DNA of 64,000 nucleotides from Dictyostelium discoideum (taxonomy: Eukaryota). The translations under genes and the position numbers were made by a program. The stretch is taken from the NCBI GenBank assembly GCA_000004695.1, contig CM000150.2, forward strand, positions 736,001 through 800,000, read 5' to 3'. This document shows positions 1 through 15,300 of the stretch, in pieces. The notes under the pieces are model-generated. The model was not told the origin of the DNA. It saw only the letters and a program-made list of their open reading frames with translations, and did not search any database. The stretch's first letter is position 1, and the number at the start of each line of letters is the position of its first letter.

Positions 1-119
1 AATTTATACATATAATAAATAAATCACTGTTATATCTTCACCGCCACATTCATTCCTCTTAATTTTACCCTTTTTTTGCTCATTAAAGCAAGGGCTATCG
101 TCCTATATACTTTTCAACA

Positions 120-1328
120 ATGGCTGATGATCACTCAACTGAATTACAGTTAAATCATACAGATAACAACACGACCAATACAAATAATACCTCCACAACC
201 TCAACAACAAAAAATAAAAGTGCAAAAATCGACACACCTAAAAAACAAACCCCAACAAACCAACTCTCACTAAACAAAGGACTTGATAATCAATTAGATA
301 TCATTGCACCTCCATCAATCACAAGACCACTCTCTTTCTTAGAAAAAAACAATAACACCATCAACATTAAGTGTTACTTTAATCAACCACACATCCGTGA
401 AGAATTAACCTCAAAAGATGACACAAGAATTCAACAAATTCACAAAAACATTCACAAACTCTTCGAAGATATACTGTCGCCATCAGCATTCAAAATAATT
501 GGTGCAACTGCCTTCGTAAATTGCAACGTTGATAAATTAACTTCAATAATCAACCTTCAAAACCAACTTGCACTAAATATCGACAAACTCAACTATAGAT
601 TCGATATATCATCAAATGATTATGCAATCATTAAAACATTCATTAAAACGTACTCACCCAAACATGCAAACGATGCAATTACAAACAACCTCACTAAATT
701 CACCAGTTGTACATCAATTGAATCATTTACTGTCACATACTCATATGCTGTTGCGTTTAAAAGCTACATTATAACATATCATCTAATTGATCACACACAC
801 AACATTATTGATCAAAAGATCGAACAACCATCTGGTATCACAAGATATATCAAAGCTGCAACACGTAGTGTCACTAAACACAAAATTCAACATGCAAAAA
901 ATGCAGATATGGCAACAACTATAAAAAATGCCATCACAAACCCAAACATGAACAAAAACAATCAACCACCAAAAAACAACATTAACACCCCACCAATCAA
1001 CGAAATTGCAAATTCCAATCGCAATAATAACTCACTTCAAAATAGTGGTTCAAAAGCTATACTAAATGAATCACTTGATATTAACAATCAATCCCAAAAC
1101 AATAATGAAATTTCACACAAAAGTGATTCTTCAAATAATAATAACGGGAAAAACTCTTTATCAATGAGCAATCCAACCGATCCAACAATTGTACCACAAA
1201 AACCTCTACAATCTCAACCAAACAAACCAAGTGCACCAACTCCAAATACAATAAATACAAGAAGAAGCAGCAATGCCCTGACTACACAACCAGTCAATAC
1301 TGGTGCTGCCAAACCTAGTAAGGTATGA
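120..1328 (+). CDS. Retrotransposon ORF1 protein (N/T/Q-rich, nucleic-acid-binding-like)
   Basis: 402-aa ORF. Its TGA overlaps the ORF2 ATG (ATGA at 1325-1328), the typical LINE ORF1 position. Confidence 0.7.
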   Translation: MADDHSTELQLNHTDNNTTNTNNTSTTSTTKNKSAKIDTPKKQTPTNQLSLNKGLDNQLDIIAPPSITRPLSFLEKNNNTINIKCYFNQPHIREELTSKDDTRIQQIHKNIHKLFEDILSPSAFKIIGATAFVNCNVDKLTSIINLQNQLALNIDKLNYRFDISSNDYAIIKTFIKTYSPKHANDAITNNLTKFTSCTSIESFTVTYSYAVAFKSYIITYHLIDHTHNIIDQKIEQPSGITRYIKAATRSVTKHKIQHAKNADMATTIKNAITNPNMNKNNQPPKNNINTPPINEIANSNRNNNSLQNSGSKAILNESLDINNQSQNNNEISHKSDSSNNNNGKNSLSMSNPTDPTIVPQKPLQSQPNKPSAPTPNTINTRRSSNALTTQPVNTGAAKPSKV

Positions 1329-4300
1329 GCTCAAAAATCAACTTTATAACATGGAATTGTAGAGGATTCACTGAAAACCCAAACAATCAACACAATTCCT
1401 ACCAAAAAGCTGTTGACACACTACAACTACTTATATCAAAACTTCCACCTCGTCCAACAATCTCAATACTCACTGAACTCAATTCATCACCATTACAACT
1501 TAAACATGATTTTCCCGATCACATCATCTCTGTCACCAAACGAGGAAATGGTGTAATCATCATTAACCATAACCCAAACACACTCAAACTCAAACACATA
1601 TCAACAATTGATGGTAGAGCTATTTTAGCAGACGTTATATTTCCAAATCAATTACCAATTGGTATTCTTGGAATTTACGCACCAGCATCAAATAATACCA
1701 TCAAAAAGAATTCATATGCAACTTCACTACAAACACTTCTCCACAACCACTCAACAAACCCAATACCAAACCAATCCCAACATGTATCTATTATCGCAGG
1801 AGATTTCAACTGTATCCACAACGACAATTCACTATTAGATGATATTATCCAATCCTACACATACCAACACCATCTAATTGATCAAGGTGAATTTAAAAAC
1901 ACTCCAACTCATACACATGGCAACAGATTAGATAGAATATATACTCAATACAATAGAATAGACCCTGAAAATATATATACACAAGTCCACCAAATTCCAT
2001 CTTCATTATCAGATCATAATCCAATATCAACAACAATTTCTTCACCTTTTCAAATAAATAAACATAAGAAAAGATGGATATTATCACCTGGTACTGCAAA
2101 TGACCATGAAGCAATCAATATTATCAATCATTTAATAACTAATCACAATAACACATCAATCAATCAATTTACAAACTGGTCAAAAGTAAAATCAAAAATT
2201 ATAAAAACTCTAAAAAACTATCAATATAACAAAGACAAACAAACTCAACGTGCAAAACAAATACTATTAGAAAAAGCAGCAAAATTCAAACATCTTGAAG
2301 AACAATGCATCGCTGAATACAATATTATATGTAACAAAAACAAACTACATCAAAACCACACAAACATATTAAAAAAACATATAAATGGAGAAATACCTAG
2401 CAAGTATCTATCAGCAATACTAAACAAAAGATCAAAAGATGCAAAAATTGAATCAATCCAATATGGTAACATCATTACATCCGACCCCGACCAAATTGAA
2501 AATGCGTTTGTTGAATTCTACACAAATCTATATAGCTTACAAATATGTTGTCCAATTACTCACCAGCTCATGCCAAACACATGGCCCATCATAAAAAATG
2601 AATATTGGAATGGTTTAGACTCACCATTTATACAAGATGAAGTTGAAGCTGCAATTAAAACCTGTAACCCCAACAAATCACCCGGTCCAGATGGCGTTAC
2701 AAATGCATTCTACATTAATCATTTAAACCAAGTTAAACCAATTCTCACTACATTATTCAACGATATACTAGAAAATCCTCACCACATCACAACAGAATTC
2801 ACAGAAGGTCTTATACACACAATATACAAGAAAGGCAACCCCTTACTCATATCAAATCGTCGTCCCATTACACTTCTAAACACTGATTACAAGATCCTCT
2901 CAAAAGTAATCAATGCACGTCTTCTGAGAATACTTCCTTTCATCATCAACAACAACCAAACTGGTTTCGTACCCCACAGATTCATCATAGACAACATCAT
3001 CAACATCAATGAATTAATCAACTACCTCAAATCTAAAAACCTCCCTGGTATCATCACACTATTTGACTTCTTTAAAGCATTTGATTCTATCTCTCACGAT
3101 AGCATTAAAAGAACATTAATTCATATTGGTATACCAATAAAATTAATAAATTTAATCCACAAGCTATTATCTGACTCACAAGCAAAAATTTCAATTAATG
3201 GTAAAACGACCAGAAAATTCGATATTAAAAGAGGTGTAAAACAAGGTGACCCAATCTCAGCCACTTTATTTGTAATTGTAATTGAAATATTAGCAAGAAC
3301 AATAAATGCAGACAATTCAATAATTGGATTACCAATTTCACCCAATCCACAAATTAAAATTAAATTTACCCAATTTGCAGACGACTCTACAACATACAAC
3401 ATCAACTACGAACAACAACAACAATCAATCAAACATTTCGATAATTTCTGCGCTTCAACATCATCATCATTAAATTTTGACAAAAGTGCAATAATAGAAA
3501 TCAACCCCCACAAAATCACTGATAAACACATAATAAACAACATTCCACAATCAAAAAGAATACCAATAACCAAAAAAGATCAATCAGAAAGAGTTCTTGG
3601 CTATTTCTTTAATCATAATGGTTTACATAGGAAATTACCAGAAACAATGAAAACACTGATTAAATCATTAGTGCTATGGAAAACTAGTGGCACAACATTA
3701 AAAACAAAAACAACCATCATAAACACCTACTCACTATCACCAATAACATATTTATCATACCTTGAAGAATTTACAAAAGATGAAGAAATTCAAATTAATA
3801 AATTAATCTCATGGTTTATGAATTCTCCCGCAAATTCTGAATCACCAACTCTCGATACCAATTCCATTGAAAAAAACACATCAACCATCCATTCACGTGC
3901 AAAAATACCTTTGATGTGTTATGATAGATCATTAAAACCATTAAAAGAAGGTGGTTGGGGTATGTGGAATATACAATTACGACAAGTTGCTCAAAAGATT
4001 TGGATATACAACAGATTTTTACAAATGCATAAATCTGCAAACAATTCAATATACATGATAAGTTGGATGGATCAAATCATCAACAAATCAATCTCTTCTC
4101 CATACCTTATAAAAATCAAAAAAGAATGGGAAAACTATGCAACTCAAATTGGACATCTAAAAGATAAAGTTCAAATCCTACAACCAATATTAACAAAAAA
4201 CCAACCCTCTCAAACATTAAACACAAATAATATTTCACTACCACCAACACTCAAAGAAATCTACTCGACAATACTAAACAATCACCAATGCAAATCAAAA

Positions 4301-5152
4301 GACTATATTGGCAAGAAATATTCAGATCTACTTCTTACTTCGCACCAACAATCAATACAACTATTATGGAAATACACATACGACCAACTTTTTGTCAAAA
4401 TTCAAAAATTAAAAGATCCAAAAGGCCGAGATACAATGCAAAGATTCCATGCTAGATGTCTTCCGATTAATCATCTACACAACAAAGTTTGCCCCATTTG
4501 CAACAATGAAATGAATAATGATCCCTATGGTCATTTGTTCTTCAATTGTCAGCACACAATCAACTTCATTAACCACGACAAATTAAAATATTTTATATAT
4601 AAAAATTGCAATGGAAACAAAAACTGGTCACTAACAAAAAACCAAACAACAAAATTATACACACTCATTTATAAACCACAAACAAACAACAAAGCATTTA
4701 AACCAGATCCAACTATCAATATTAATTTTCATTTTGCAGAAAACGCACAATATAAAAAATACAGGTTCAACTGGAATTATATAAACACAAATCTTGATCT
4801 AGTCAGAACACATGCATATTGGAACATAATCTCATTAGTTATTCAACAAATATGGATATGGTTATGCAAATCATTATTTGACATCAATATAACTCAATCA
4901 ATTGATAATTGGAACAACCAAATAAACAACACAACACTAGATTATGATATATTAAAATCAAAATGGCACAAGCTAATAAGATTGGAATATTCAAGAACTT
5001 TATCAAACTTTAACCAATACTCAATTAAAAACAACCTCACAAAAACTCAAAAAGAAACCCAATGGTCCGAAACCATCAAAAAATTTAAAAAAGAATGGAG
5101 CATAAACACAAATGAACCAATTCCAACAATTACACCACCAATTAATTATTAA
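1325..5152 (+). CDS. Retrotransposon ORF2: apurinic-like endonuclease + reverse transcriptase + C-terminal Cys/His (zinc-finger-like) domain
   Basis: APE motifs (WNCRGF, IAGDFNC, RLDRIY, SDHNPIS). RT motifs (SPGPDG, FVPHRFIIDNI, LFDFFKAFDSISH, KRGVKQGDPIS, QFADDSTTY = YxDD variant). C-terminal HARCLPINHLHNKVCPICN...YGHLFFNCQHT. 1275 aa, intact. Confidence 0.9.
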   Translation: MSSKINFITWNCRGFTENPNNQHNSYQKAVDTLQLLISKLPPRPTISILTELNSSPLQLKHDFPDHIISVTKRGNGVIIINHNPNTLKLKHISTIDGRAILADVIFPNQLPIGILGIYAPASNNTIKKNSYATSLQTLLHNHSTNPIPNQSQHVSIIAGDFNCIHNDNSLLDDIIQSYTYQHHLIDQGEFKNTPTHTHGNRLDRIYTQYNRIDPENIYTQVHQIPSSLSDHNPISTTISSPFQINKHKKRWILSPGTANDHEAINIINHLITNHNNTSINQFTNWSKVKSKIIKTLKNYQYNKDKQTQRAKQILLEKAAKFKHLEEQCIAEYNIICNKNKLHQNHTNILKKHINGEIPSKYLSAILNKRSKDAKIESIQYGNIITSDPDQIENAFVEFYTNLYSLQICCPITHQLMPNTWPIIKNEYWNGLDSPFIQDEVEAAIKTCNPNKSPGPDGVTNAFYINHLNQVKPILTTLFNDILENPHHITTEFTEGLIHTIYKKGNPLLISNRRPITLLNTDYKILSKVINARLLRILPFIINNNQTGFVPHRFIIDNIININELINYLKSKNLPGIITLFDFFKAFDSISHDSIKRTLIHIGIPIKLINLIHKLLSDSQAKISINGKTTRKFDIKRGVKQGDPISATLFVIVIEILARTINADNSIIGLPISPNPQIKIKFTQFADDSTTYNINYEQQQQSIKHFDNFCASTSSSLNFDKSAIIEINPHKITDKHIINNIPQSKRIPITKKDQSERVLGYFFNHNGLHRKLPETMKTLIKSLVLWKTSGTTLKTKTTIINTYSLSPITYLSYLEEFTKDEEIQINKLISWFMNSPANSESPTLDTNSIEKNTSTIHSRAKIPLMCYDRSLKPLKEGGWGMWNIQLRQVAQKIWIYNRFLQMHKSANNSIYMISWMDQIINKSISSPYLIKIKKEWENYATQIGHLKDKVQILQPILTKNQPSQTLNTNNISLPPTLKEIYSTILNNHQCKSKDYIGKKYSDLLLTSHQQSIQLLWKYTYDQLFVKIQKLKDPKGRDTMQRFHARCLPINHLHNKVCPICNNEMNNDPYGHLFFNCQHTINFINHDKLKYFIYKNCNGNKNWSLTKNQTTKLYTLIYKPQTNNKAFKPDPTININFHFAENAQYKKYRFNWNYINTNLDLVRTHAYWNIISLVIQQIWIWLCKSLFDINITQSIDNWNNQINNTTLDYDILKSKWHKLIRLEYSRTLSNFNQYSIKNNLTKTQKETQWSETIKKFKKEWSINTNEPIPTITPPINY

Positions 5153-5515
5153 TTACCTAATCTAAAATAACATACTATTTTAAATTCACAAAAACTAAAA
5201 AACCTAAAATAAATAAATAAAAATAACATACTAATTGTATACTACAATAGTTTATTTATATCAAAAAAAAAAAAAAAAAATAAATCGGGTCAAGTGTTCG
5301 ATTCTTTAAAAAGTAAAATAATTATCTTTAATATTGCCATGATAAAAAAACCCGTACCGCGATCAAGAGGATACAAGATACACGTGAAAAGTAATTCATC
5401 CTTTTCTATCCTTAATCTCGGTCAATTTTAACCAATCTTTCAAAAAAAATCACCAATCCACCACGATCTACAGATCTAACTTACCAAATCGCCGATTCAA
5501 AGGAATCCCATCGAG

Positions 5516-6766
5516 ATGAATTCCTACGCAGACGCGGCTAAAATGGCCAACCCCTCCACCCATATGGACGAGGCATCGGAGAACTTCATTAAGGAATTCT
5601 CCACAAAAACAGCAGAGATAAAGGAGACCTACCCCAAACTATCAATAGGCCTCAAAGACATCTCCAAATACTGCGAGACCATATTGAACATGACTGCGCT
5701 CTCAACCTACGAGAAGAACAACGGATTCTACCCAATTACACTCGAATTCCCCAAAATGGATCTCAAGGGGTTAGAAGAAATGAGAAAAACACTCTCAAAC
5801 TACGATATCCCAATCGACAAGATATACATAGGCAAAGGAACTAGAAAAATGATCCACCTGATGATTAAAAACGAACAATCTCTCCTAAATATCATTAGAG
5901 ATAGAAGCAAATTGGGAACCTTCATCACCTCCAGTAGAGACTTCCACGTCCTCACAGGAAGAGTAAGAATTCCCAGAGAAAAGGCAGGAATAGTGGACGC
6001 CCTCATCAAAACTGCCTTTGCAGAAGAAATACCCTATGCAATATACAATACTATATACTCCACCGACCACCTCATAGTATTCGGTCTAATAGAATGCAAA
6101 ATAGGCGATCAAATGAAATCTGGCCAACACATTACAGAAATCGCAAACTTTACCATCAGAACGGCCACCAAAACCTACTCCTCACAAAAGAAAAACAAGA
6201 AAGTAGAGACAAACAACACGGAGGAACCATTAGAAGATGAGATGACAGATCCTCCTAACACCCAAAACAGGATAGCAATCAAATCCTCTCAACCAAAACC
6301 ACAACAACAAACAAACAACCCAGCAAACAATAAGTCTGATAAACAATCAACCCAAGAGAAAAAAGCCCAATCAAAAAAGTCCTCTCAACCTCTTCCCCCC
6401 AAAAACCAAGCAGAATCTCAATCTGTCAAACCCACCACAACCACTACCACAACATCCAACGCCATCCAAAAAGACAATGCCAACAAAACGAGCACTAACA
6501 TCCATTCATCCTCGGAAAACAGAGAGAAGACACCAAACATCCCTCCATCACATAAACGCAAGAACGAGGAAATCCACTCAAACAACGAGGTCACCCAACT
6601 CTCACCAACAATAAACAGAAGCAACCCTTACATCCCATCCACCCCTAAGACACCTGTCAAAAAAGAAAGGAAAGGAATCATTGAGAGCTTCATAGAGAGT
6701 ATCTACCCTTCACCATCCAAACCGCAGCTATACGACTCCCAAGAGGAGATCGATATCATCTCATAA
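5516..6766 (+). CDS. Retrotransposon ORF1 protein (copy 2)
   Basis: 416-aa ORF. Its stop TAA shares one base with the ORF2 ATG (TAATG at 6764-6768). Basic/Ser-Thr-rich C-terminus. Confidence 0.65.
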   Translation: MNSYADAAKMANPSTHMDEASENFIKEFSTKTAEIKETYPKLSIGLKDISKYCETILNMTALSTYEKNNGFYPITLEFPKMDLKGLEEMRKTLSNYDIPIDKIYIGKGTRKMIHLMIKNEQSLLNIIRDRSKLGTFITSSRDFHVLTGRVRIPREKAGIVDALIKTAFAEEIPYAIYNTIYSTDHLIVFGLIECKIGDQMKSGQHITEIANFTIRTATKTYSSQKKNKKVETNNTEEPLEDEMTDPPNTQNRIAIKSSQPKPQQQTNNPANNKSDKQSTQEKKAQSKKSSQPLPPKNQAESQSVKPTTTTTTTSNAIQKDNANKTSTNIHSSSENREKTPNIPPSHKRKNEEIHSNNEVTQLSPTINRSNPYIPSTPKTPVKKERKGIIESFIESIYPSPSKPQLYDSQEEIDIIS

Positions 6767-9540
6767 TGGTAGTAATCAAAATCAACCAATGGAATGTCAG
6801 AGGTTGGGGCACTGACACCTCCTTCAAAAACAAAACAGACTTTATCAAATCCCAATCCCCCCCAAACTCATTGGCACTAACCATAGTCAATGAACTCAAC
6901 GCCGACGCAACACAAGCACACCAGCTATTTCCTGGCTCCATCATTAGCGCAACCAACAGAGGCAACGGAATAGGAATACTAAACCACAACAACCAAAACA
7001 TAAAACTCTCACCAATATTCATAATAGAAGGTAGACTAATAATATCAGACATTCTAATAAAAGATACCACAACGAGAATCTTGGCCATATACGCCCCGGC
7101 CCAACCTGATAAAAGAAAAACACTAGCTTCAACACTAAACAAACACTTCAACAACCAATACCACAACCTAACGTCTAACCCTAATAAAAACATCGACATC
7201 ATAGCAGGCGACTTCAACTGTTTAGACTTCAATGACAATCACACATCAAATGATGACCAAGGCAACTTGACAACACAATCCCCAGATGAGATGGCCACAG
7301 TAATCGAAGCCATCAGAATTTCAAATAACCTAATGGATATGGACCAACTAAATAAAAGACCCACCTTCTCAAGAACGATACACAACACAAACAATAACCT
7401 CACAAGAATCTTGGAAAGGAGACTAGACAGAATATACCTTAACAATAGCATAATCAACTACAGCCAATTATACTTAAGGAACCTAATCCCCCCAAAAATT
7501 AATGACATACCTCTATCAGATCACAACTTCCTATCAACCACCTTCACTCTACCCAACATACAGATGAACAAGCGCAGATGGAGATTAAAAAAATCCTCAA
7601 TCCTCTCAAGCATAATGCTTAAGAAAATAGACTTCCTACTTAACGATTATTCAAGGGAGCTGTCATCCAACCATAACTCTATTTCCTTCTCTCAACTCAA
7701 CAGCTTACTAAACAAAATAAAACAACTATACACAGAATTTCAAAAACAAAATGACTACAACAATAAGGCAAACATCAAAAATCTAATCTCCCTACTAGAG
7801 ACAGAATTTAAAGACCAAGCCTTCGCAACCCTTTCAGCAATAAATGAATCTAAAAAAAGAGAAGAACAACTTAAACAAGAATTGAACAACTATTGCGAAG
7901 AAACCTCACTCAAGTACATCTCCGCGAGAATCAAGAAAAGACACAATGATTTCACCATCAACGCAGTAAAAGATGCACAAGGTAGAACAATCAACAAACA
8001 GGAATTGATCGAAGAAGAATACGTAAAATATTACTCAAATCTTTATGACTACAAAGAAGATGACCCACCATCTCATTATGAAATGTTGGAAAATTGGACA
8101 GTGACCAGGGACTCAACATGGGACAACCTTGAAAATGAATTCACATCACAAGAGATCCTAGAAGTAATAAAACAATTGAACCCACACAAATCTCCAGGCC
8201 CAGATGGAATTCCAAACTTATTCTACATAACACACAAAGAAAAACTAGCTCCAATACTGGCCTCAGCATTCAACGACACTCTAAGAAATCCTCATCTAAT
8301 TAGCAAAAATTACAAAGAAGGCCTCATTATCACGATACCTAAAAAGGGAGACCCCGAACTAATCAAAAACAGAAGACCAATTACACTGGCTAACTGTATA
8401 TATAAAATCCACTCAAAACTAATAAACAATAGAATAATCCCAATACTAACGAAAGTGATCAACCACAATCAAAAAGGTTTCGTACCAGGCAGATTCATTC
8501 TAGATAATATCATATCAATGAACGAATTAATCAACTATTGTAATGATAAAAGAATTAACGGAATAATTACACTATATGATTTCGAAAAAGCTTTTGACTC
8601 GATCTCACACGGTTCAATACTCAGATCACTACAACACATCAACATTCCAACCAATATAATCAACCTGATAATGAATCTACTCACCAAATCTGAAGCAAGA
8701 ATTGAAATTAATGGTAGAACTACTATACCCTTTGAGATCAAAAGAGGAGTTAAACAAGGAGATCCACTATCACCCACCCTGTTCGTCCTTGTAATAGAGG
8801 CTTTAGCTAGAAAAATTTTACAAGATGACCGAATTACTGGCCTTCCTCTAAACAACAGCAACCACAGAGAGAAATTCCAAAGCTTTGCAGACGACTCGGC
8901 TTCAATGGTCCCAGACTTTCAACAACTTGAATTAGTACTACAACACTTCAATTCATTTTGCAAAGCCACTTCCTCAAAACTAAACATCGACAAATCTTCA
9001 TCAATTCTTATAGGCAACCCAGACAATACCAACCAAAGAATTCCAATATCTACAAATCCAGAAAGATACTTGGGATACTTCTTCACAGGCAAAGGGATAA
9101 CAAGAAAAATGCCAGAAATATTAAACACAATAAGATCATCCTTAGTACTATGGAAAACCACTGACTCAACAATCAAAACCAAAACCAACATCCTCAAAGC
9201 ATTCGCACTCTCTAAATTAACCTACTATTCATATGTAGAGAACTTTAAGGAAGAGGAATTAAACCAAATCAATAAATTAGTCGAATGGTTTTTATCGGCA
9301 CCAAACAACAAAAATGCTAGTGGATTTCAAGTTATTAATTTAATGAGAACCAAAAGAGCAAGATACCCACTAAAAGTAGGGGGCTGGAACATTTGGAATA
9401 TAGAATTGAGACAACTGGCGCAGAAACTTTGGATCATAAACCAATTCATCCTAGCACTAGAAACCAAACAAACAAACTCATCTCATCACAAAAGCTGGGA
9501 ATATCAAATCCAAAAAACAAATTCACATCCAGATACCTAA
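6766..9540 (+). CDS. Retrotransposon ORF2 (copy 2), APE endonuclease + reverse transcriptase portion
   Basis: WNVRGW, IAGDFNC, RLDRIY, SDHNF (APE). SPGPDG, FVPGRFILDNI, LYDFEKAFDSISH, KRGVKQGDPLS, SFADDSAS (RT). Ends in a stop at 9540 after sequence that has diverged from copy 1. Confidence 0.85.
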   Translation: MVVIKINQWNVRGWGTDTSFKNKTDFIKSQSPPNSLALTIVNELNADATQAHQLFPGSIISATNRGNGIGILNHNNQNIKLSPIFIIEGRLIISDILIKDTTTRILAIYAPAQPDKRKTLASTLNKHFNNQYHNLTSNPNKNIDIIAGDFNCLDFNDNHTSNDDQGNLTTQSPDEMATVIEAIRISNNLMDMDQLNKRPTFSRTIHNTNNNLTRILERRLDRIYLNNSIINYSQLYLRNLIPPKINDIPLSDHNFLSTTFTLPNIQMNKRRWRLKKSSILSSIMLKKIDFLLNDYSRELSSNHNSISFSQLNSLLNKIKQLYTEFQKQNDYNNKANIKNLISLLETEFKDQAFATLSAINESKKREEQLKQELNNYCEETSLKYISARIKKRHNDFTINAVKDAQGRTINKQELIEEEYVKYYSNLYDYKEDDPPSHYEMLENWTVTRDSTWDNLENEFTSQEILEVIKQLNPHKSPGPDGIPNLFYITHKEKLAPILASAFNDTLRNPHLISKNYKEGLIITIPKKGDPELIKNRRPITLANCIYKIHSKLINNRIIPILTKVINHNQKGFVPGRFILDNIISMNELINYCNDKRINGIITLYDFEKAFDSISHGSILRSLQHINIPTNIINLIMNLLTKSEARIEINGRTTIPFEIKRGVKQGDPLSPTLFVLVIEALARKILQDDRITGLPLNNSNHREKFQSFADDSASMVPDFQQLELVLQHFNSFCKATSSKLNIDKSSSILIGNPDNTNQRIPISTNPERYLGYFFTGKGITRKMPEILNTIRSSLVLWKTTDSTIKTKTNILKAFALSKLTYYSYVENFKEEELNQINKLVEWFLSAPNNKNASGFQVINLMRTKRARYPLKVGGWNIWNIELRQLAQKLWIINQFILALETKQTNSSHHKSWEYQIQKTNSHPDT

Positions 9541-10469
9541 AAGAGAACTTAGACGAATGGAACAAAATAAGAATCAAAAAAGCAATCTTCAACAATAATC
9601 TCACATCCATAAAAAACGAAAATGGACAACCACTTTCACTGGCAGAATGGTATACCACAATTCAAGACCAAAATCCAACCATCCCTAAAACGGAATTCCA
9701 ATCATCTCTAAACTTAAGAGGCTACAGCTATAATCAACTCTTCAACAACATACTGAAGATAAAAGACCCTAAAACAAGAGACACAATGTTTAGATTCCAT
9801 GCCAGATGCCTTCCAATAAACTACCTTCACAACAAACAATGCCCACTCTGCAAAGAAGATATGAGCAAAGACCCATACGGTCACCTGTTCTTCTCATGCA
9901 AGAAAACAAAACAATTCATAAAAATAAATAAACTCAAAAATTTCATCTATATTACCACAGGAAAAGGTAAAAACTGGCATCATACAAGAATTAGGCAAAA
10001 TAACAATTTCATTAATAGAATAACTCCAAAATTATCACCGACAGCCAAAAAAGATCAAGAAGTGAATGCAGATTACGCCAACCACAGATTCCACAAAGAA
10101 TACTTTGAATGGAACTATAAAGCAATAGACTATGATCTAACCAGATCATTCGCATATAGAAACCTAATGGCCCTTATCCTCCACAACATTTGGATTTGGA
10201 TTTGCAATCAAATATACAGTGAAGATCCTTTAACAAATGAATCATTATCATACAGCTCCCTTCTAAAGAAATGGCACAAATTGGCCACTCTAGAATACAT
10301 CAAAAAAGCAAAAGATCTGAAAAACTTATCAGCAAAAGACCATAATAATTTCAAAGATCCTAAGATCCTTCTCACCTCAACGATCAAGCTAAGAAAAACA
10401 ACAGCTAATTACTATTGTATTCCAGAATCATCTCTCCCAAATATTATATCTTTTGATCAATTCATATGA
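9393..10469 (+). CDS. Retrotransposon ORF2 (copy 2) C-terminal segment in a shifted frame (apparent frameshift; Cys/His motif HARCLPINYLHNKQCPLCK...YGHLFFSCKKT)
   Basis: Homology to copy 1's ORF2 C-terminus resumes in another frame (SRYLKENLDEWNKI vs SPYLIKIKKEWENY). The frame switch lies between ~9450 and 9525. Confidence 0.6.
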   Translation: MEYRIETTGAETLDHKPIHPSTRNQTNKLISSQKLGISNPKNKFTSRYLKENLDEWNKIRIKKAIFNNNLTSIKNENGQPLSLAEWYTTIQDQNPTIPKTEFQSSLNLRGYSYNQLFNNILKIKDPKTRDTMFRFHARCLPINYLHNKQCPLCKEDMSKDPYGHLFFSCKKTKQFIKINKLKNFIYITTGKGKNWHHTRIRQNNNFINRITPKLSPTAKKDQEVNADYANHRFHKEYFEWNYKAIDYDLTRSFAYRNLMALILHNIWIWICNQIYSEDPLTNESLSYSSLLKKWHKLATLEYIKKAKDLKNLSAKDHNNFKDPKILLTSTIKLRKTTANYYCIPESSLPNIISFDQFI

Positions 10470-10567
10470 TTAAAATAACCCTTCAGCTTAAATGATAAGC
10501 CTATAAATAAATATTAAATAAAAACTCGTATTAACACAGATGGACATATATCAATCTTGTTAATCCA

Positions 10568-10603
<36 letters not shown>

Positions 10604-10606
<3 letters not shown>

Positions 10607-10839
10607 TGCCAAATTGAAAATAAAAAATAAAAGACCACCCAATTATTATATGAATGCTGTAAAGCGTGAACCAATTATATTTGGTTCGATTAATTTCAAA
10701 GATCCAAACGATTTCCTTTATCAAATAATTAAGAAAACTTTACAAAGTATATTGTATATCAGAATCTAAACCAAAATAATATCTGTATTTTAATATAAAC
10801 CAAATAATAATTGTGTTTTAAAAAAACCTATTAATTACA

Positions 10840-10876
<37 letters not shown>
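10604..10876 (+). mobile_element. Short poly(A)-terminated unit (about 240 bp + A32) abutting the poly(A) of TRE copy 2; probable 5'-truncated retroelement tail or SINE-like insertion
   Basis: Unique AT-rich segment bounded by the A31 tract (10573-10603) and a second A32 tract (10845-10876). Confidence 0.35.
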
Positions 10877-10879
<3 letters not shown>

Positions 10880-10952
10880 TATAACTAATTCTTAATAAAA
10901 ATATTTGAAAACCAGTTTATTTAATTTTAATCATTTTAATTTATATAATTTT

Positions 10953-13568
10953 TTAAATATTTAATCTTATAAATTCTAAAATAAAATCAATATTTTTATA
11001 AATTTTACCATTTGAATTTGTTTTATTACAATTCATTTTATAATCTGAAAATGATTTTATAAATTGATTTATTTCGTGATTTGTAACTAAGCTATATTGG
11101 CAATCATAAACTGTACGTCGAGGGTATAACTGATAATCTTTTAAAAATCTTTTAATATTATCAATTGATAATGTCGAAAATACACTATTAATATCATAAA
11201 TATAATTAAAATATGATTTTCCTCTTGGTATTGATAAAGGATCATTGTGATTCCAACATGTAAATTCTATTTGGTCTGGTTTTAAAATTCCATTTAAAAT
11301 TTTTGATTCTAAAAACTTATCAAATTTATAATTTCTTTCTAAATTATTACTTATTATTAATTGTATTGAAGCCATTTGATGATCATGATTTGTTGAAAGA
11401 ATTAAATTATTTGTAATTATAATTTTATTAAATGTATAATTAATTAAATCCCAATCATTTGTTTCACTAAACTTTTGTAATGATTGGTTATTAAATTTAA
11501 AACCTAATTCTTCATAAAGATACTTTGCAGTTTTTAATGATTTTGAATAATTTATATAAGAATTTATACCTTTACAACCAATATTATCAAAACAGAATTT
11601 TACAAGTTCTAAATTATCTTTTTCAATAAAATTTGAATAAACTTGTTTACTACCCCAATCAGTAAATAAATTATTAAAGTTATTAAAAAAATATTTAAAT
11701 AAGGTTGGATTATTAATTAAAAGCATTGAGTTTAATTGTTTTTTAATACCACCATTTAAGAAATAATTCTGATTATTATTTTTAATAAATATACCTAGTT
11801 CATTCATAAATTCAATTGTTACATTTAAATCTGAATCTTGAATAACACTTTTAAGAACTTGAATTCTTTCATTCTCTGTTGAAAAACCAGAATTAATATT
11901 ATAAAGAGTACCTAAAAAATTCAATTTTTGTTTAATTGAAAATTCTTTATAACAATTTAATGGTATATTATAATCGAATTCCTCATCCAATTCTAAAAGT
12001 GATCCATCATCAAAACCTGGAAATAATTGATTTAACATTCCAAATAAAATTGAGTCATAATTAATTTTTGAACAATTTAAAATTATTCTAAATAATGAAT
12101 GATTTGTTAATTTATATTTATTTAATATTTCATTTTTATTATTAAAGAATTCCTTTTTAATTTTATCATATTCTTTATACTCTGAATAAAATTGAATAAT
12201 TAAACAAACAATTCTATGTTGCCAATCCATATCATTTTCAAATCCATTAATTCTTTTTAAAAAATCAAAAATAAAAATTCTTTTAATTTCTCTTTCGAAA
12301 TCAAAATTATTAAAATTAATTTCTAAAAGTTTTTCATGTGATGAATATTTTGAAATTAATTTTTTAATAAAATTATTTGAATTTTTATAATCTTTATCAA
12401 TTTCTTTTTCTTTATTATTATTTATTGTATTATAATTATTATTATATTCAATTAATTTATTAATTTTTTTAAAAATTAATTCAAAAATTGTTGTTGAAAT
12501 ATTATTTGATAAATTATTATTATTATTATTAATTCCCACAAACACCAAAGATTTAAAATAATTTAAAAATTGATTAAATGGTGAAATTTCATTACTATCT
12601 TTTAATGATAATGGTGAAATTTCATTTAATAGTAAACTAATAAATTCTTCAAATGGTTGATCATTAATTTTTAAACTTTTAATTAAATTATTATTTGAAG
12701 ATATTAATTTTTTAAAAATATTAAATTCTAATTTCATAATATATGTATTGAATTCAACAAAAATTGACCTAACCAATGATTGTGGAAATAAAGGATCATT
12801 TGATTTATAACCAATTTCATCTAATAAAAAAGTTACTACATTATCTCTATTATCCGATAATAAACTATAATATAATAATTTTTCATAATCATCATCGTCA
12901 TTAAATTTTAATTGAAATGAATTAAATAATAATTTTATAATCTCTAAATTTCCAAGTTTTAATGAAATTTTAAAAAAATCTTTTAAATCTTTTTCAATAT
13001 CAATATTATTATTATTTTGGGTGGTTGAAGATGATGATGATAAATAATCATTAAAAATCAATTTGACAAAATATGGATTTTGTGTTAAAATTGAAAAAGG
13101 TAAAATTCCAAAACTTTTAAAATAAGTTCCTTTGTGTGAATAATGATATGTTTTTAATCTTGAACTATTTGATTTATAGAATTTTTCTAATAGTTGATCT
13201 CCATCTTCAATGATGGTATGTAGAGTTATTATTAATTCTCTTAATATTAAATAATTTGAAATTTCATATTCATCCCATTGAAAATTAATTTTAATTTTAT
13301 CTTTTAATAGTTCATAATTCTTTGTTGTAAATATCCAACTTAAAGTTGCCTCTCCATATCCTCTTCTATTAATTGGTGTTATGAATTCATTAAAATCCAA
13401 TAATGTTGTACTAATTGGGAGTCCATTAAAATCATATAATTTTGTTTTTTGAATTGTCAAACAATTTCCTTGTTTTTCTTTATTTATAATTTTTACAAAT
13501 TTATATATTTTTTTTAATAAATATTTATTATCAAAAACTTCTTTAAATAATTTATAATTTATATCCAT
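10953..13568 (-). CDS. Hypothetical protein, 871 aa, no recognisable catalytic motifs (Dictyostelium-type orphan, N/K/I-rich)
   Basis: Long uninterrupted minus-strand ORF with ATG at 13568. It sits between retroelement sequences and the tRNA-Asn gene. Confidence 0.5.
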   Translation of the reverse strand: MDINYKLFKEVFDNKYLLKKIYKFVKIINKEKQGNCLTIQKTKLYDFNGLPISTTLLDFNEFITPINRRGYGEATLSWIFTTKNYELLKDKIKINFQWDEYEISNYLILRELIITLHTIIEDGDQLLEKFYKSNSSRLKTYHYSHKGTYFKSFGILPFSILTQNPYFVKLIFNDYLSSSSSTTQNNNNIDIEKDLKDFFKISLKLGNLEIIKLLFNSFQLKFNDDDDYEKLLYYSLLSDNRDNVVTFLLDEIGYKSNDPLFPQSLVRSIFVEFNTYIMKLEFNIFKKLISSNNNLIKSLKINDQPFEEFISLLLNEISPLSLKDSNEISPFNQFLNYFKSLVFVGINNNNNNLSNNISTTIFELIFKKINKLIEYNNNYNTINNNKEKEIDKDYKNSNNFIKKLISKYSSHEKLLEINFNNFDFEREIKRIFIFDFLKRINGFENDMDWQHRIVCLIIQFYSEYKEYDKIKKEFFNNKNEILNKYKLTNHSLFRIILNCSKINYDSILFGMLNQLFPGFDDGSLLELDEEFDYNIPLNCYKEFSIKQKLNFLGTLYNINSGFSTENERIQVLKSVIQDSDLNVTIEFMNELGIFIKNNNQNYFLNGGIKKQLNSMLLINNPTLFKYFFNNFNNLFTDWGSKQVYSNFIEKDNLELVKFCFDNIGCKGINSYINYSKSLKTAKYLYEELGFKFNNQSLQKFSETNDWDLINYTFNKIIITNNLILSTNHDHQMASIQLIISNNLERNYKFDKFLESKILNGILKPDQIEFTCWNHNDPLSIPRGKSYFNYIYDINSVFSTLSIDNIKRFLKDYQLYPRRTVYDCQYSLVTNHEINQFIKSFSDYKMNCNKTNSNGKIYKNIDFILEFIRLNI

Positions 13569-13620: not shown

Positions 13621-13820
13621 TTTTTTTTTTTTTTTTTTTTTTATTTTTAAAATTGGTTCCATTTGATTTGATTATAACCAATATTATCAAAACAAAATTT
13701 TACAAGTTCTAAACTACCATCAATAATAAAAATAGAAAAAATTTGTTCACTACCCCAATCAGCAAATAAATTTTTGAAATTATTAAAAAAATATTTAAAT
13801 AAGGTTGGATTATTAATTTT
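13621..13820 (-). repeat. Retro-copied 145-bp fragment of the 10953-13568 CDS (copy of 11578-11718) preceded by a T30 tract; part of a chimeric retroelement insertion
   Basis: 13676-13820 is ~90% identical to 11578-11718. It is flanked by T-runs (13621-13650 and 13825-13852). Confidence 0.6.
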
Positions 13821-13821
13821 T

Positions 13822-13824
<3 letters not shown>

Positions 13825-13857
<33 letters not shown>

Positions 13858-13958
13858 TGGATTAACAAGATTGATATATGTCCATCTGTATTTATAGGCT
13901 TATCATTTAAGCTGAAGGGTTATTTTAATCATATGAATTGATCAAAAGATATAATAAT
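13825..13958 (-). mobile_element. 5'-truncated TRE fragment (3' UTR + poly(A), minus orientation) identical in sequence to the 3' end of TRE copy 2 (10449-10603)
   Basis: T28 followed by the exact reverse complement of 10449-10572 (aatattggattaacaagattgatatatgtccatctg...catatgaattgatcaaaagatat). It lies ~75-200 bp downstream (in tRNA orientation) of tRNA-Asn. Confidence 0.8.
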
Positions 13959-13992
13959 TTTTAATTTTTAATTGTTTAATAAAACTATTCAA

Positions 13993-14005: not shown

Positions 14006-14032
14006 TGATTTAAGGGTTGTTCAACAAAATTT

Positions 14033-14105
14033 CGCCTAGACATGGGATCGAACCATGGACCTAGCGGTTAACAGCCGCTCGCTCTGCCTACTGAGCCATC
14101 CAGGC
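14033..14105 (-). tRNA. tRNA-Asn (anticodon GUU), 73 nt, no intron
   Basis: Reverse complement GCCTGGATGGCTCAGTAGGCAGAGCGAGCGGCTGTTAACCGCTAGGTCCATGGTTCGATCCCATGTCTAGGCG folds as a cloverleaf: 7-bp acceptor stem (one G-U), D-stem GCTC/GAGC, anticodon stem AGCGG/CCGCT with loop CTGTTAA, T-stem CATGG/CCATG with TTCGATC loop, discriminator G. Confidence 0.9.
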
Positions 14106-14149
14106 ATTTTTGATGAAAATTGTAATATTTAAATGATATTGTATGTAAA

Positions 14150-14509
14150 AACACAAACCATCTACAAATTGCACTAGTAGCCAATTTAATAGCTATTATA
14201 TTCGAAAAAATCTGGCACAAAAGAAATAAACTCATTCATGATGAAAAAGAAATAATAATTCACAGACAACAAGTCATACGTGAACTAATTAAAACACAAA
14301 GAGCTGCATGGGACAGGACACAAGCGGTTATAAACAAAACATTAAGAATCAAATCAAAGCAACGGCCAGAAGAACAAAATAAATTAGACTCACTAATCTC
14401 GCTAAAGCTATTACAATTTAGCAGACAATGGAACTCACCTCTTCACGCAATAGAACTTCCTAAACATCTCAAAAAATACAATAATTCACTCAGTACTTTC
14501 TATAAATAA

Positions 14510-14563
<54 letters not shown>

Positions 14564-14569
14564 GGAACC
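14150..14569 (+). mobile_element. 5'-truncated non-LTR retroelement fragment (ORF2 C-terminal remnant + 3' UTR + ~55-nt poly(A)) directly upstream of tRNA-Asn in divergent orientation
   Basis: Open frame ...LIAIIFEKIWHKRNKLIHDEKEIIIHRQQVIRELIKTQRAAWDRTQ...KHLKKYNNSLSTFYK* resembles TRE ORF2 C-termini. Long A-tract at 14512-14569. It starts ~45 bp from the tRNA 5' end. Confidence 0.55.
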
Positions 14570-14699
14570 CAAGTTAATCAGAAAATTTCCAGATTTTTAA
14601 CTTTTTAAAGAAAAATAAAAAAAATAGAAAGAAAATAAAATGAAAATCACAAACAACACCACAAATATTAAGCTACACAAATGCCTACAAAAAATAAGC

Positions 14700-14854
14700 G
14701 AAATTGTGGATAAAACTCAATTAAAAAAAAAACAATTCAAATACGTCATAAACATCAATCACGAACCAGACGATAAAATAAAAAAAGATTTAGAAAAAAG
14801 TTTGAACAAAAAAGATGTTTTAATCAAAAGTAATAATACATTCAAAATTCGAAA

Positions 14855-14902
<48 letters not shown>

Positions 14903-15300
14903 TAAACCAACCCCTCTTTTAGAGACCCTGTAAAAAAAAAAAAAATAAAATAAAATAAAATGAGATCTAGCATCTCAAGGAGAAGCAAATAATAATTGCG
15001 TTATCCAATTCAAAAAAAAAAGTATGTAAAAACACTCAAATAAAACAATTCAAATATGTCAATCGCGAAGCAGACGATAAATAAGATTAGAAAAAGGTTT
15101 GGACAAAAAGATGTTTAAATCAAAAGTATTAAAAAAAAGTAAACACCCCCTCTTTTAGAGACCCTGTAAAAAATATTACAAATAAAATGAGATCCAGCAT
15201 CTCAAGGAGAAGAAAATAATAATTGAGTTATCCAATTATTCAAAAAAAAAAAAAAGTATGTAAAAAATTCAATTCCTTTTGTCTTTGAAGAAAATGTGAT
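14700..15300 (+). repeat. Tandem, degenerate ~230-330-bp repeat units each beginning near gtatgtaaaaaca and ending in an A-run (unit 14700-15020, unit 15021-15256, partial third)
   Basis: 14715-14990 aligns with 15033-15240 (caattcaaata[c/t]gtca...gacgataaa...gatgttt[t]aatcaaaagta...cctcttttagagaccctgtaaaaa...atgagatc[t/c]agcatctcaaggagaag.aaataataattg.gttatccaatt). The listed ORF 14640-14933 lies inside a unit and is not a gene. Confidence 0.6.

Follow-up and report, generated by a model that had tools for sequence, protein, structure and literature searches.

Two TRE3 retrotransposons and an older remnant in tandem downstream of a tRNA-Thr gene of Dictyostelium discoideum

How do two different retrotransposons and a third poly(A)-ended unit come to stand in one row, and which gene drew them there? 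The question is raised by the first 10,877 nucleotides (nt) of a 64,000-nt stretch of Dictyostelium discoideum DNA (chromosome 1, contig CM000150.2, positions 736,001 to 800,000 of the AX4 assembly; the whole stretch is called the window here). On the plus strand, window positions 1-10877 hold two full-length TRE3 retrotransposons without long terminal repeats (non-LTR retrotransposons) of differing subfamilies, referred to as copy 1 and copy 2, together with a short remnant that ends in poly(A). The array is targeted to a tRNA-Thr(AGU) gene whose end lies 46 nt left of window base 1, and we are confident that it represents three separate tRNA-directed integrations downstream of this one gene. 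The locus is real yet ordinary. In the reference genome of D. discoideum it represents a documented kind of TRE3 tandem 3' of a tRNA gene, and both the location of TRE3 3' of tRNA genes and the tandem build-up at a single tRNA gene are already established (PMC5006619, PMC5911963).

Architecture, target gene and empty site

The features are collected in Table 1, and the loci and proteins compared are cited by their L and P numbers. Each full-length copy consists of two open reading frames (ORFs), the second of which encodes an endonuclease of the apurinic/apyrimidinic type (APE) together with a reverse transcriptase (RT) and a Cys/His zinc finger, and they end in oligo(A) tails of 18 and 31 residues (A18 and A31), as is expected of TRE3. 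In Pfam, ORF2 of copy 1 matched Exo_endo_phos (1.1e-12) and RVT_1 (3.7e-31), and ORF2 of copy 2 matched RVT_1 (2.8e-33), its APE match being weak and below the curated cut-off. Both proteins carry a CCHC zinc knuckle, which is CPICNNEMNNDPYGHLFFNC in copy 1 (C-X2-C-X10-H-X4-C, amino acids 1056-1075) and CPLCKEDMSKDPYGHLFFSC in copy 2. When the two copies were compared, similarity between the ORF1 proteins was undetectable (E=3.7) and the ORF2 proteins were about 40% identical. Therefore, copies 1 and 2 belong to different subfamilies and did not arise by duplication. An exact look-up of the four element ORFs in the protein collection returned none.

The same three-part structure with the same junctions was found in a second D. 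discoideum assembly (GCA_054883475.1), where the array locus (L001 and L003) matches the window colinearly with 99.6% identity, so the overall structure is no misassembly. If the region were a collapsed or chimeric repeat, or one element duplicated in tandem, this would have to be reproduced in that independent assembly, and would also have to account for unrelated ORF1 proteins, ORF2 proteins only 40% identical and a separate target-site duplication for each full-length element. Local mis-polishing is plausible, since copy 2 differs between the two assemblies at about 30 sites, mostly with AX4 equal to the consensus, and in the length of one A run (A6/A7); as an explanation of the array itself, an artefact has practically no likelihood, and both tandem duplication and misassembly were rejected. 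An earlier interpretation made from the letters of the window (the sequence-only reading) had likewise argued against a tandem duplication. It had described TRE-type non-LTR elements of two subfamilies lying head to tail with a third 3' tail, each full copy having ORF1 and an APE-RT-Cys/His ORF2, and the ORFs, Pfam domains, CCHC motifs and protein comparisons bear this out, with the qualifications that the APE match of copy 2 is below threshold and that its ORF2 is split in this assembly. The checks that it proposed gave RVT_1 and Exo_endo_phos matches in both ORF2s, a colinear second assembly, and one target-site duplication for each full-length copy.

TRE3 elements are transcribed in the same direction as their tRNA gene and can use its internal or external B boxes (PMC5911963); the published distances downstream of tRNA genes are 14-228 bp for TRE3-A and 34-188 bp for TRE3-B (PMC5006619 Table 1). 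Because TRE3 lies 3' of tRNA genes by this rule, which the TRE3-A fragment behind tRNA-Asn also shows, and the array is on the plus strand, the tRNA gene was expected to the left, off the window. We reached the left flank in the second assembly via the copy 2 ORF1 protein of the same locus. There, a tRNA-Thr(AGT) gene is found at L003 4369-4440 on the plus strand, and window base 1 corresponds to L003 4486. The array is thus 3' of tRNA-Thr and in the same orientation, all three elements having their 5' ends toward the tRNA. Behind the gene, L003 shows a T-run, then AGAAAGGCCT TAAATCGGGTCAA AGAAATAAACGAG, running into window base 1, and in the window the A18 tail of copy 1 is followed by TAAATCGGGTCAA GTGTTCGATTC. 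Since the same TAAATCGGGTCAA stands on both sides of copy 1, TAAATCGGGT(CAA) is the target-site duplication of copy 1, which was inserted about 30 bp past tRNA-Thr.

Positions 5281-5339 are accordingly flank of the tRNA gene, made up of the copy 1 duplication, a B-box-like motif and the copy 2 duplication. Copy 2 had been thought to start right after the A18 tail, which is off by 59-63 bp: in the alignment, the sequence common to five other copies starts at 5344 (AAAAAAACC...) and everything left of 5344 is locus-specific, 5340-5343 being extra or variable 5' nucleotides of copy 2. The extent of copy 2 was confirmed by blastn. The duplications are of 10-13 bp for copy 1 and 10 bp for copy 2. 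The B-box-like motif GTGTTCGATTC, lying 33-43 bp past tRNA-Thr before the arrival of copy 1, is a candidate external B box by its consensus and by the position described in PMC5911963.

Table 1. Positions of the elements, their reading frames, the flanking duplications and the nearby tRNA features in the window.
Feature	Position	Strand	Remarks
Copy 1, TRE3-B-type (probable) non-LTR retrotransposon	1..5280	+	body 1-5262, A18 tail 5263-5280
Copy 1 ORF1, 402 amino acids	120..1328	+	no Pfam domain; 4-nt overlap with ORF2 (ATGA)
Copy 1 ORF2, 1275 amino acids, intact	1325..5152	+	APE endonuclease, reverse transcriptase, zinc knuckle
Copy 1 target-site duplication, right copy, TAAATCGGGT(CAA)	5281..5293	+	left copy 13-26 nt left of window base 1 (L003 4460-4472)
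B-box-like motif GTGTTCGATTC, candidate external B box of tRNA-Thr	5294..5304	+	read from sequence; conserved in L014
Copy 2 target-site duplication, left copy, AATATTGCCA	5330..5339	+	L014 continuous across site
Copy 2, TRE3-A-type (probable) non-LTR retrotransposon	5340..10603	+	body 5344-10572 = 5229 bp; A31 tail 10573-10603
Copy 2 ORF1, 416 amino acids	5516..6766	+	in-frame 3-bp deletion relative to the 417-amino-acid form of young copies
Copy 2 ORF2 (APE-RT-zinc knuckle)	6766..10469	+	split here: 6766-9540, then second frame to 10469
Copy 2 target-site duplication, right copy, AATATTGCCA	10602..10611	+	first two A's merge with poly(A) tail
Old tRNA-Thr flank or 5' part of remnant	10612..10689	+	adjoins 5294-5339 in empty-site strain
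Old 5'-truncated TRE3-A-like 3' remnant	10690..10877	+	similarity 10690-10844, A33 tail 10845-10877
TRE3-A 3' fragment, about 130 bp with poly(A)	13813..13971	-	duplication TTAAAAATTAA on both sides
tRNA-Asn(GTT)	14032..14106	-	separated from array by DDB_G0267740 (10953-13568, minus strand)

A third strain (GCA_054859385.1, locus L014) carries the corresponding site without the two long elements. Its ortholog of DDB_G0267740, the host gene next to the array, is 90% identical (P0128) and is followed by about 300 bp and then a tRNA-Thr gene. The pre-insertion sequence was rebuilt by joining L003 4369-4472, window 5294-5339 and window 10612-10960, and it aligned with L014 from end to end, 90% of positions being identical and both junctions free of gaps. 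Both full-length copies are absent from L014 and both target sites are single, that of copy 1 being TAAATGGGAACAA. This empty site shows that both full-length copies are insertions and that the flank was assigned correctly. The remnant is kept in L014, with deletions, including its poly(A) run. As it is present where copies 1 and 2 are absent, it is the oldest component of the array. A third poly(A)-terminated unit had been noticed before, and it does exist (A33 at 10845-10877); what does not hold is its description as a later arrival in the tail of copy 2.

These results also decide on the build-up proposed by the sequence-only reading, in which copy 1 came first, copy 2 inserted after its A18 tail, the remnant went into the tail of copy 2, and the whole was loosely linked to a tRNA gene 3-4 kb away. 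The elements are indeed head to tail with a poly(A) run before each junction, and tRNA-Asn(GTT) is the sole tRNA gene within the window. However, 59 bp of non-element flank that includes the copy 1 duplication lies between A18 and copy 2; in the tRNA flank, which is uninterrupted in L014, each full-length copy is bounded by a target-site duplication of its own; and the remnant, retained in a strain without either full-length copy, must be the oldest part. A precise secondary deletion of two independent elements in L014 would be implausible. As for tRNA-Asn, the distance was computed correctly (3.2 kb), but its relevance is not upheld: the protein-coding host gene lies in between, the 3' ends of the array face this tRNA, which is opposite to nine other TRE3 loci, and tRNA-Asn has a TRE3-A fragment of its own at the canonical position. 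A tie between array and tRNA-Asn was therefore rejected on account of DDB_G0267740 and this fragment, and we regard poly(A)-proximal insertion as very improbable.

The TRE5 elements (TRE5-A/B/C) are also L1-like elements of D. discoideum with two ORFs, an APE-RT-zinc finger ORF2 and tRNA gene targeting. In contrast to the array, TRE5 inserts about 50 bp upstream of tRNA genes and in the opposite orientation; the array, which is on the downstream side of tRNA-Thr and points the same way as that gene, was not classed as TRE5.

Subfamilies and age of the three elements

Copy 1 is probably a TRE3-B element, to judge from its identity to a deposited protein, its length and an adjoining gene number rather than from alignment to a named consensus. 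Its ORF2 is 99.7% identical to the D. discoideum 'Pol' protein AAD43057.1 (P0097), a GenBank entry of 1999, and copy 1 falls in the same 90% protein cluster as DDB_G0291688 (P0127), which spans ORF1 and the first two-thirds of ORF2. The number of DDB_G0291688 adjoins that of DDB_G0291686, and the latter is annotated as 'TRE3-B ORF2' (PMC12405889, Table 2). In PMC5006619 Table 1, the TRE3-A consensus is 5229 bp long and that of TRE3-B 5279 bp; copy 1 measures about 5278 bp. Copy 1 resembles TRE3-B in its overlapping ORFs, its APE/RT/zinc knuckle ORF2, its poly(A), its duplication of 10-13 bp and the same-strand tRNA about 30 bp off, and differs from it in lacking about 27 nt at the 5' end. This gap in the 5' untranslated region is relative to three other copies, which start GAAAAAACGAAAAAAAAACCGAAAAAACAAAGAAAT, the end having been defined against L002, L009, L011 and L012; the first 13-16 nt of copy 1 lie left of the window start. 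The description of copy 1 as full-length is thus correct for the two intact ORFs and the A18 tail, and has to be amended for the 5' end, where about 27 nt are missing and the window edge cuts off the further 13-16 nt.

Copy 1 is relatively young. It is 99.96% identical to its L003 counterpart, and the four second-assembly copies L009-L012, one of which is this locus, all carry the same 2 mismatches to window copy 1 over 5262 bp. As the four copies are indistinguishable, copy 1 comes from a very recent burst and is one of several identical copies, presumably active in recent times. A 1596-amino-acid gene model at this locus is common to four accessions. The earlier suggestion that copy 1 is a candidate active element is supported by this identity and by the intact ORFs, which make it a good candidate.

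Copy 2 is probably a TRE3-A element, the assignment being drawn from a length match and relative abundance and not from alignment to a named consensus. Its body of 5229 bp has exactly the published Dd_TRE3-A consensus length, and the ORF2 cluster of the copy 2 family has 79 members compared with 13 and 29 in the two copy 1 clusters. TRE3-A, the most abundant TRE3 of D. discoideum, was formerly named Tdd-3. Our look-ups in the literature for named TRE3-A or TRE3-B consensus sequences or accession numbers (AF134169-71 included) found none. Copy 2 is like TRE3-A in its 5229-bp body, its architecture, its larger family and its distance before copy 1 arrived (78 bp, within the published 14-228 bp). 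It is unlike TRE3-A in its divergence of about 1.1% from young identical copies, in the 3-bp deletion of ORF1, and in the one-base homopolymer break of ORF2 in AX4.

In both assemblies, copy 2 departs at about 55 sites of its own (1.1%) from five young copies that are identical to one another. About 30 further sites (6332-8715, 9506-9545) distinguish AX4 from L003 in copy 2, against only 2 in copy 1. Where the two assemblies disagree within copy 2, the AX4 base is mostly that of the young consensus copies; at three sites AX4 is the odd one out, and one of the three is the frameshift: the ORF2 of copy 2 is split in the AX4 assembly because an A6 run at 9506-9511 replaces the A7 of all other copies. 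In the second assembly, ORF2 at the same locus is intact (1234 amino acids). Such a pattern of inter-assembly differences points either to gene conversion or to mis-polishing of the repeat in one of the assemblies.

The remnant resembles the 3' end of TRE3-A loosely and is significantly similar to it only over 10690-10844, which aligned with a score of 80 compared with 43 +/- 6 for shuffled sequences (0/300 shuffles reached 80); the same segment was similar neither to the copy 1 3' end nor to a control intergenic stretch. A stop-free frame runs from about 5282 over the copy 2 insertion site into the ORF2-like end of the remnant (IN FKDP...), which by a rough estimate would happen with a chance of about 1% in DNA so rich in A+T. 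The frame is a hint of a possibly longer remnant with copy 2 inside it. At the protein level, the similarity of this upstream frame to the TRE3-A and TRE3-B C-termini was not significant, and a homology search with the 74-amino-acid remnant reading frame gave no homolog; for these reasons, we do not claim that copy 2 is nested within the remnant. The copy of a third TRE3-like family (P0014, L013) did not match the remnant either, that copy ending before its 3' end. For the remnant, we saw no convincing target-site duplication. Just before the TRE3-A similarity, at about 10683-10693, stands a second B-box-like motif, TGGTTCGATTA, which reads TAGTTCGAATA in L014 (about 12790-12800). It may be a chance match or an old external B box.

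Order of the integrations

The three integrations can be explained by a mechanism in which TRE3 would select its insertion site by reference to the B box, internal or external, of the tRNA gene, a step taken from the literature. Target-primed reverse transcription leaves a poly(A) tail and a target-site duplication of 10-13 bp, and each newcomer lands about 30-160 bp from the same tRNA gene, displacing the older copies outward. First to arrive was the TRE3-A-like remnant, originally about 156 bp from tRNA-Thr, followed by the full-length TRE3-A element (5340-10603) at 78 bp and, third and most likely last, by the near-full-length TRE3-B element (to 5280) at about 30 bp. The order remnant, TRE3-A, TRE3-B is the most likely one, its last step being read from divergence. 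The part that the B box and TFIIIC play in targeting is also an inference, as are the subfamily letters.

The order of the two long elements could also be the reverse. TRE3-B would then have come first, at about 30 bp, and TRE3-A later, 35 bp behind the B-box-like motif, which by that time was 5.3 kb from the tRNA. The insertion sites do not overlap and the duplications fit either order, external B box use by TRE3 has been reported (PMC5911963), and the placement of copy 2 at 35 bp past GTGTTCGATTC is like that of the TRE3-A fragment behind tRNA-Asn, which follows about 36 bp after a B-box-like GGGTTCGACTC (14003-13993) located about 29 bp past the tRNA-Asn 3' end. What speaks for the younger age of copy 1 is that it is indistinguishable from three other second-assembly copies, with the same 2 mismatches in all, while copy 2 has accumulated its private divergence of about 1.1% and an in-frame deletion. 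The joint absence of both copies in L014 is uninformative on their relative order. On balance, we consider the reversed order unlikely.

Several points weigh against the reading as three integrations in the order given. The sequence of copy 1 and copy 2 is taken from divergence and not from nesting, their insertion sites being separate. The letters A and B come from a length match, relative abundance and the adjacent numbers of DDB_G0291688 and DDB_G0291686. For the remnant, a target-site duplication was not recognised, and the search with its peptide gave no homolog. Finally, the tRNA-Thr gene was read in the second assembly, the position in AX4 falling off the window. Three integrations behind tRNA-Thr predict that the AX4 left flank consists of a plus-strand tRNA-Thr(AGU), then TAAATCGGGTCAA, then AAGAAATAAACGAG.

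Two further ideas have a small chance of being right: the displaced GTGTTCGATTC, now 5.3 kb from the tRNA, may remain as a stand-alone TFIIIC site and TRE3 landing pad, and the clustered inter-assembly differences of copy 2 may reflect gene conversion between dispersed TRE3-A copies instead of an assembly error. A stand-alone landing pad would fit the reversed order. If true, either would leave the identity of the locus unchanged.

Neighbouring features and TRE3 copies at other loci

The intergenic DNA of the window is low in G+C, as fits D. discoideum. The ORF at 10953-13568 on the minus strand was identified by protein look-up as DDB_G0267740 of D. discoideum AX4, residue for residue. Beyond it, the TRE3-A 3' fragment, a separate event, shares the orientation of tRNA-Asn at about 74 bp downstream of that gene, its 5' end pointing to the tRNA, and so follows the same positional rule as the array. 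On the upstream side of tRNA-Asn, starting 48 bp away, a block at 14141-15037 contains two or more units that end in poly(A), the runs being at about 14512-14559 and about 14857-14900. A 14-bp direct repeat, GTATGTAAAAACAC, occurs at 14141-14154 and 15024-15037 and flanks the block 14155-15023, which stands in the canonical TRE5 position and is a candidate TRE5 by that position. A tblastn search of 14141-15037 with P0016 gave no match. Sequence resembling this block is also present near tRNA genes in L002.

Other loci show the same positional rule. In 4 of 5 loci (L004, L005, L007, L008), the copy 2 family follows a tRNA gene on the same strand at a distance of 61-101 bp; for the copy 1 family this distance is about 28-65 bp, again in 4 of 5 loci (L002, L009, L010, L012). 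Target-site duplications of 10-12 bp accompany the other TRE3-B copies. Tandems are common, with at least two TRE3 copies standing in a row at L002, L004, L007, L008 and L012.

Some of these loci have peculiarities of their own. In L002 (9806-19556), tRNA-Lys(TTT) is followed by a tandem of two TRE3-B-type copies, of which the second has internal deletions. CTATATTTTTAG stands on either side of the whole pair, and within the region so bounded there is a B-box-like GGTTCAAATCC; a short segment with TATTACCAAAAG recurs at each of the 5' junctions. A TRE3-A copy in L005 (about 6800-6860) has a short 5' duplication, with AAAAAAACCGCACCGCGATCAAGAGGAT occurring twice, and variable GAT-containing extra nucleotides were seen at the 5' junction of several TRE3-A copies. 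For the TRE3-A-type ORF1/ORF2 proteins P0060, P0074 and P0085, members at least 90% identical occur in assemblies labelled Dictyostelium citrinum; the TRE3-A family is thus shared with this close relative or was recently active in it. The third TRE3-like family mentioned above is at L013 3684-6723 in GCA_054859355.1, a D. discoideum-labelled strain. Its protein P0014 is 58% identical to TRE3-A ORF2 and 41% to TRE3-B, the copy ends before the end of the zinc finger, a DDE_Tnp_4 transposase gene is nearby, and no tRNA gene was found in the locus.

For the knowledge of TRE3 itself, the array matters little beyond annotation, where it yields corrected element boundaries. It also gives a warning, as the frameshift in the AX4 TRE3-A ORF2 comes down to a single homopolymer base that is unseen in the other assembly. 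The filled and empty states of the site, with both target-site duplications, form a polymorphism that is usable as a strain marker or, for successive tRNA-targeted integrations, as a teaching example.

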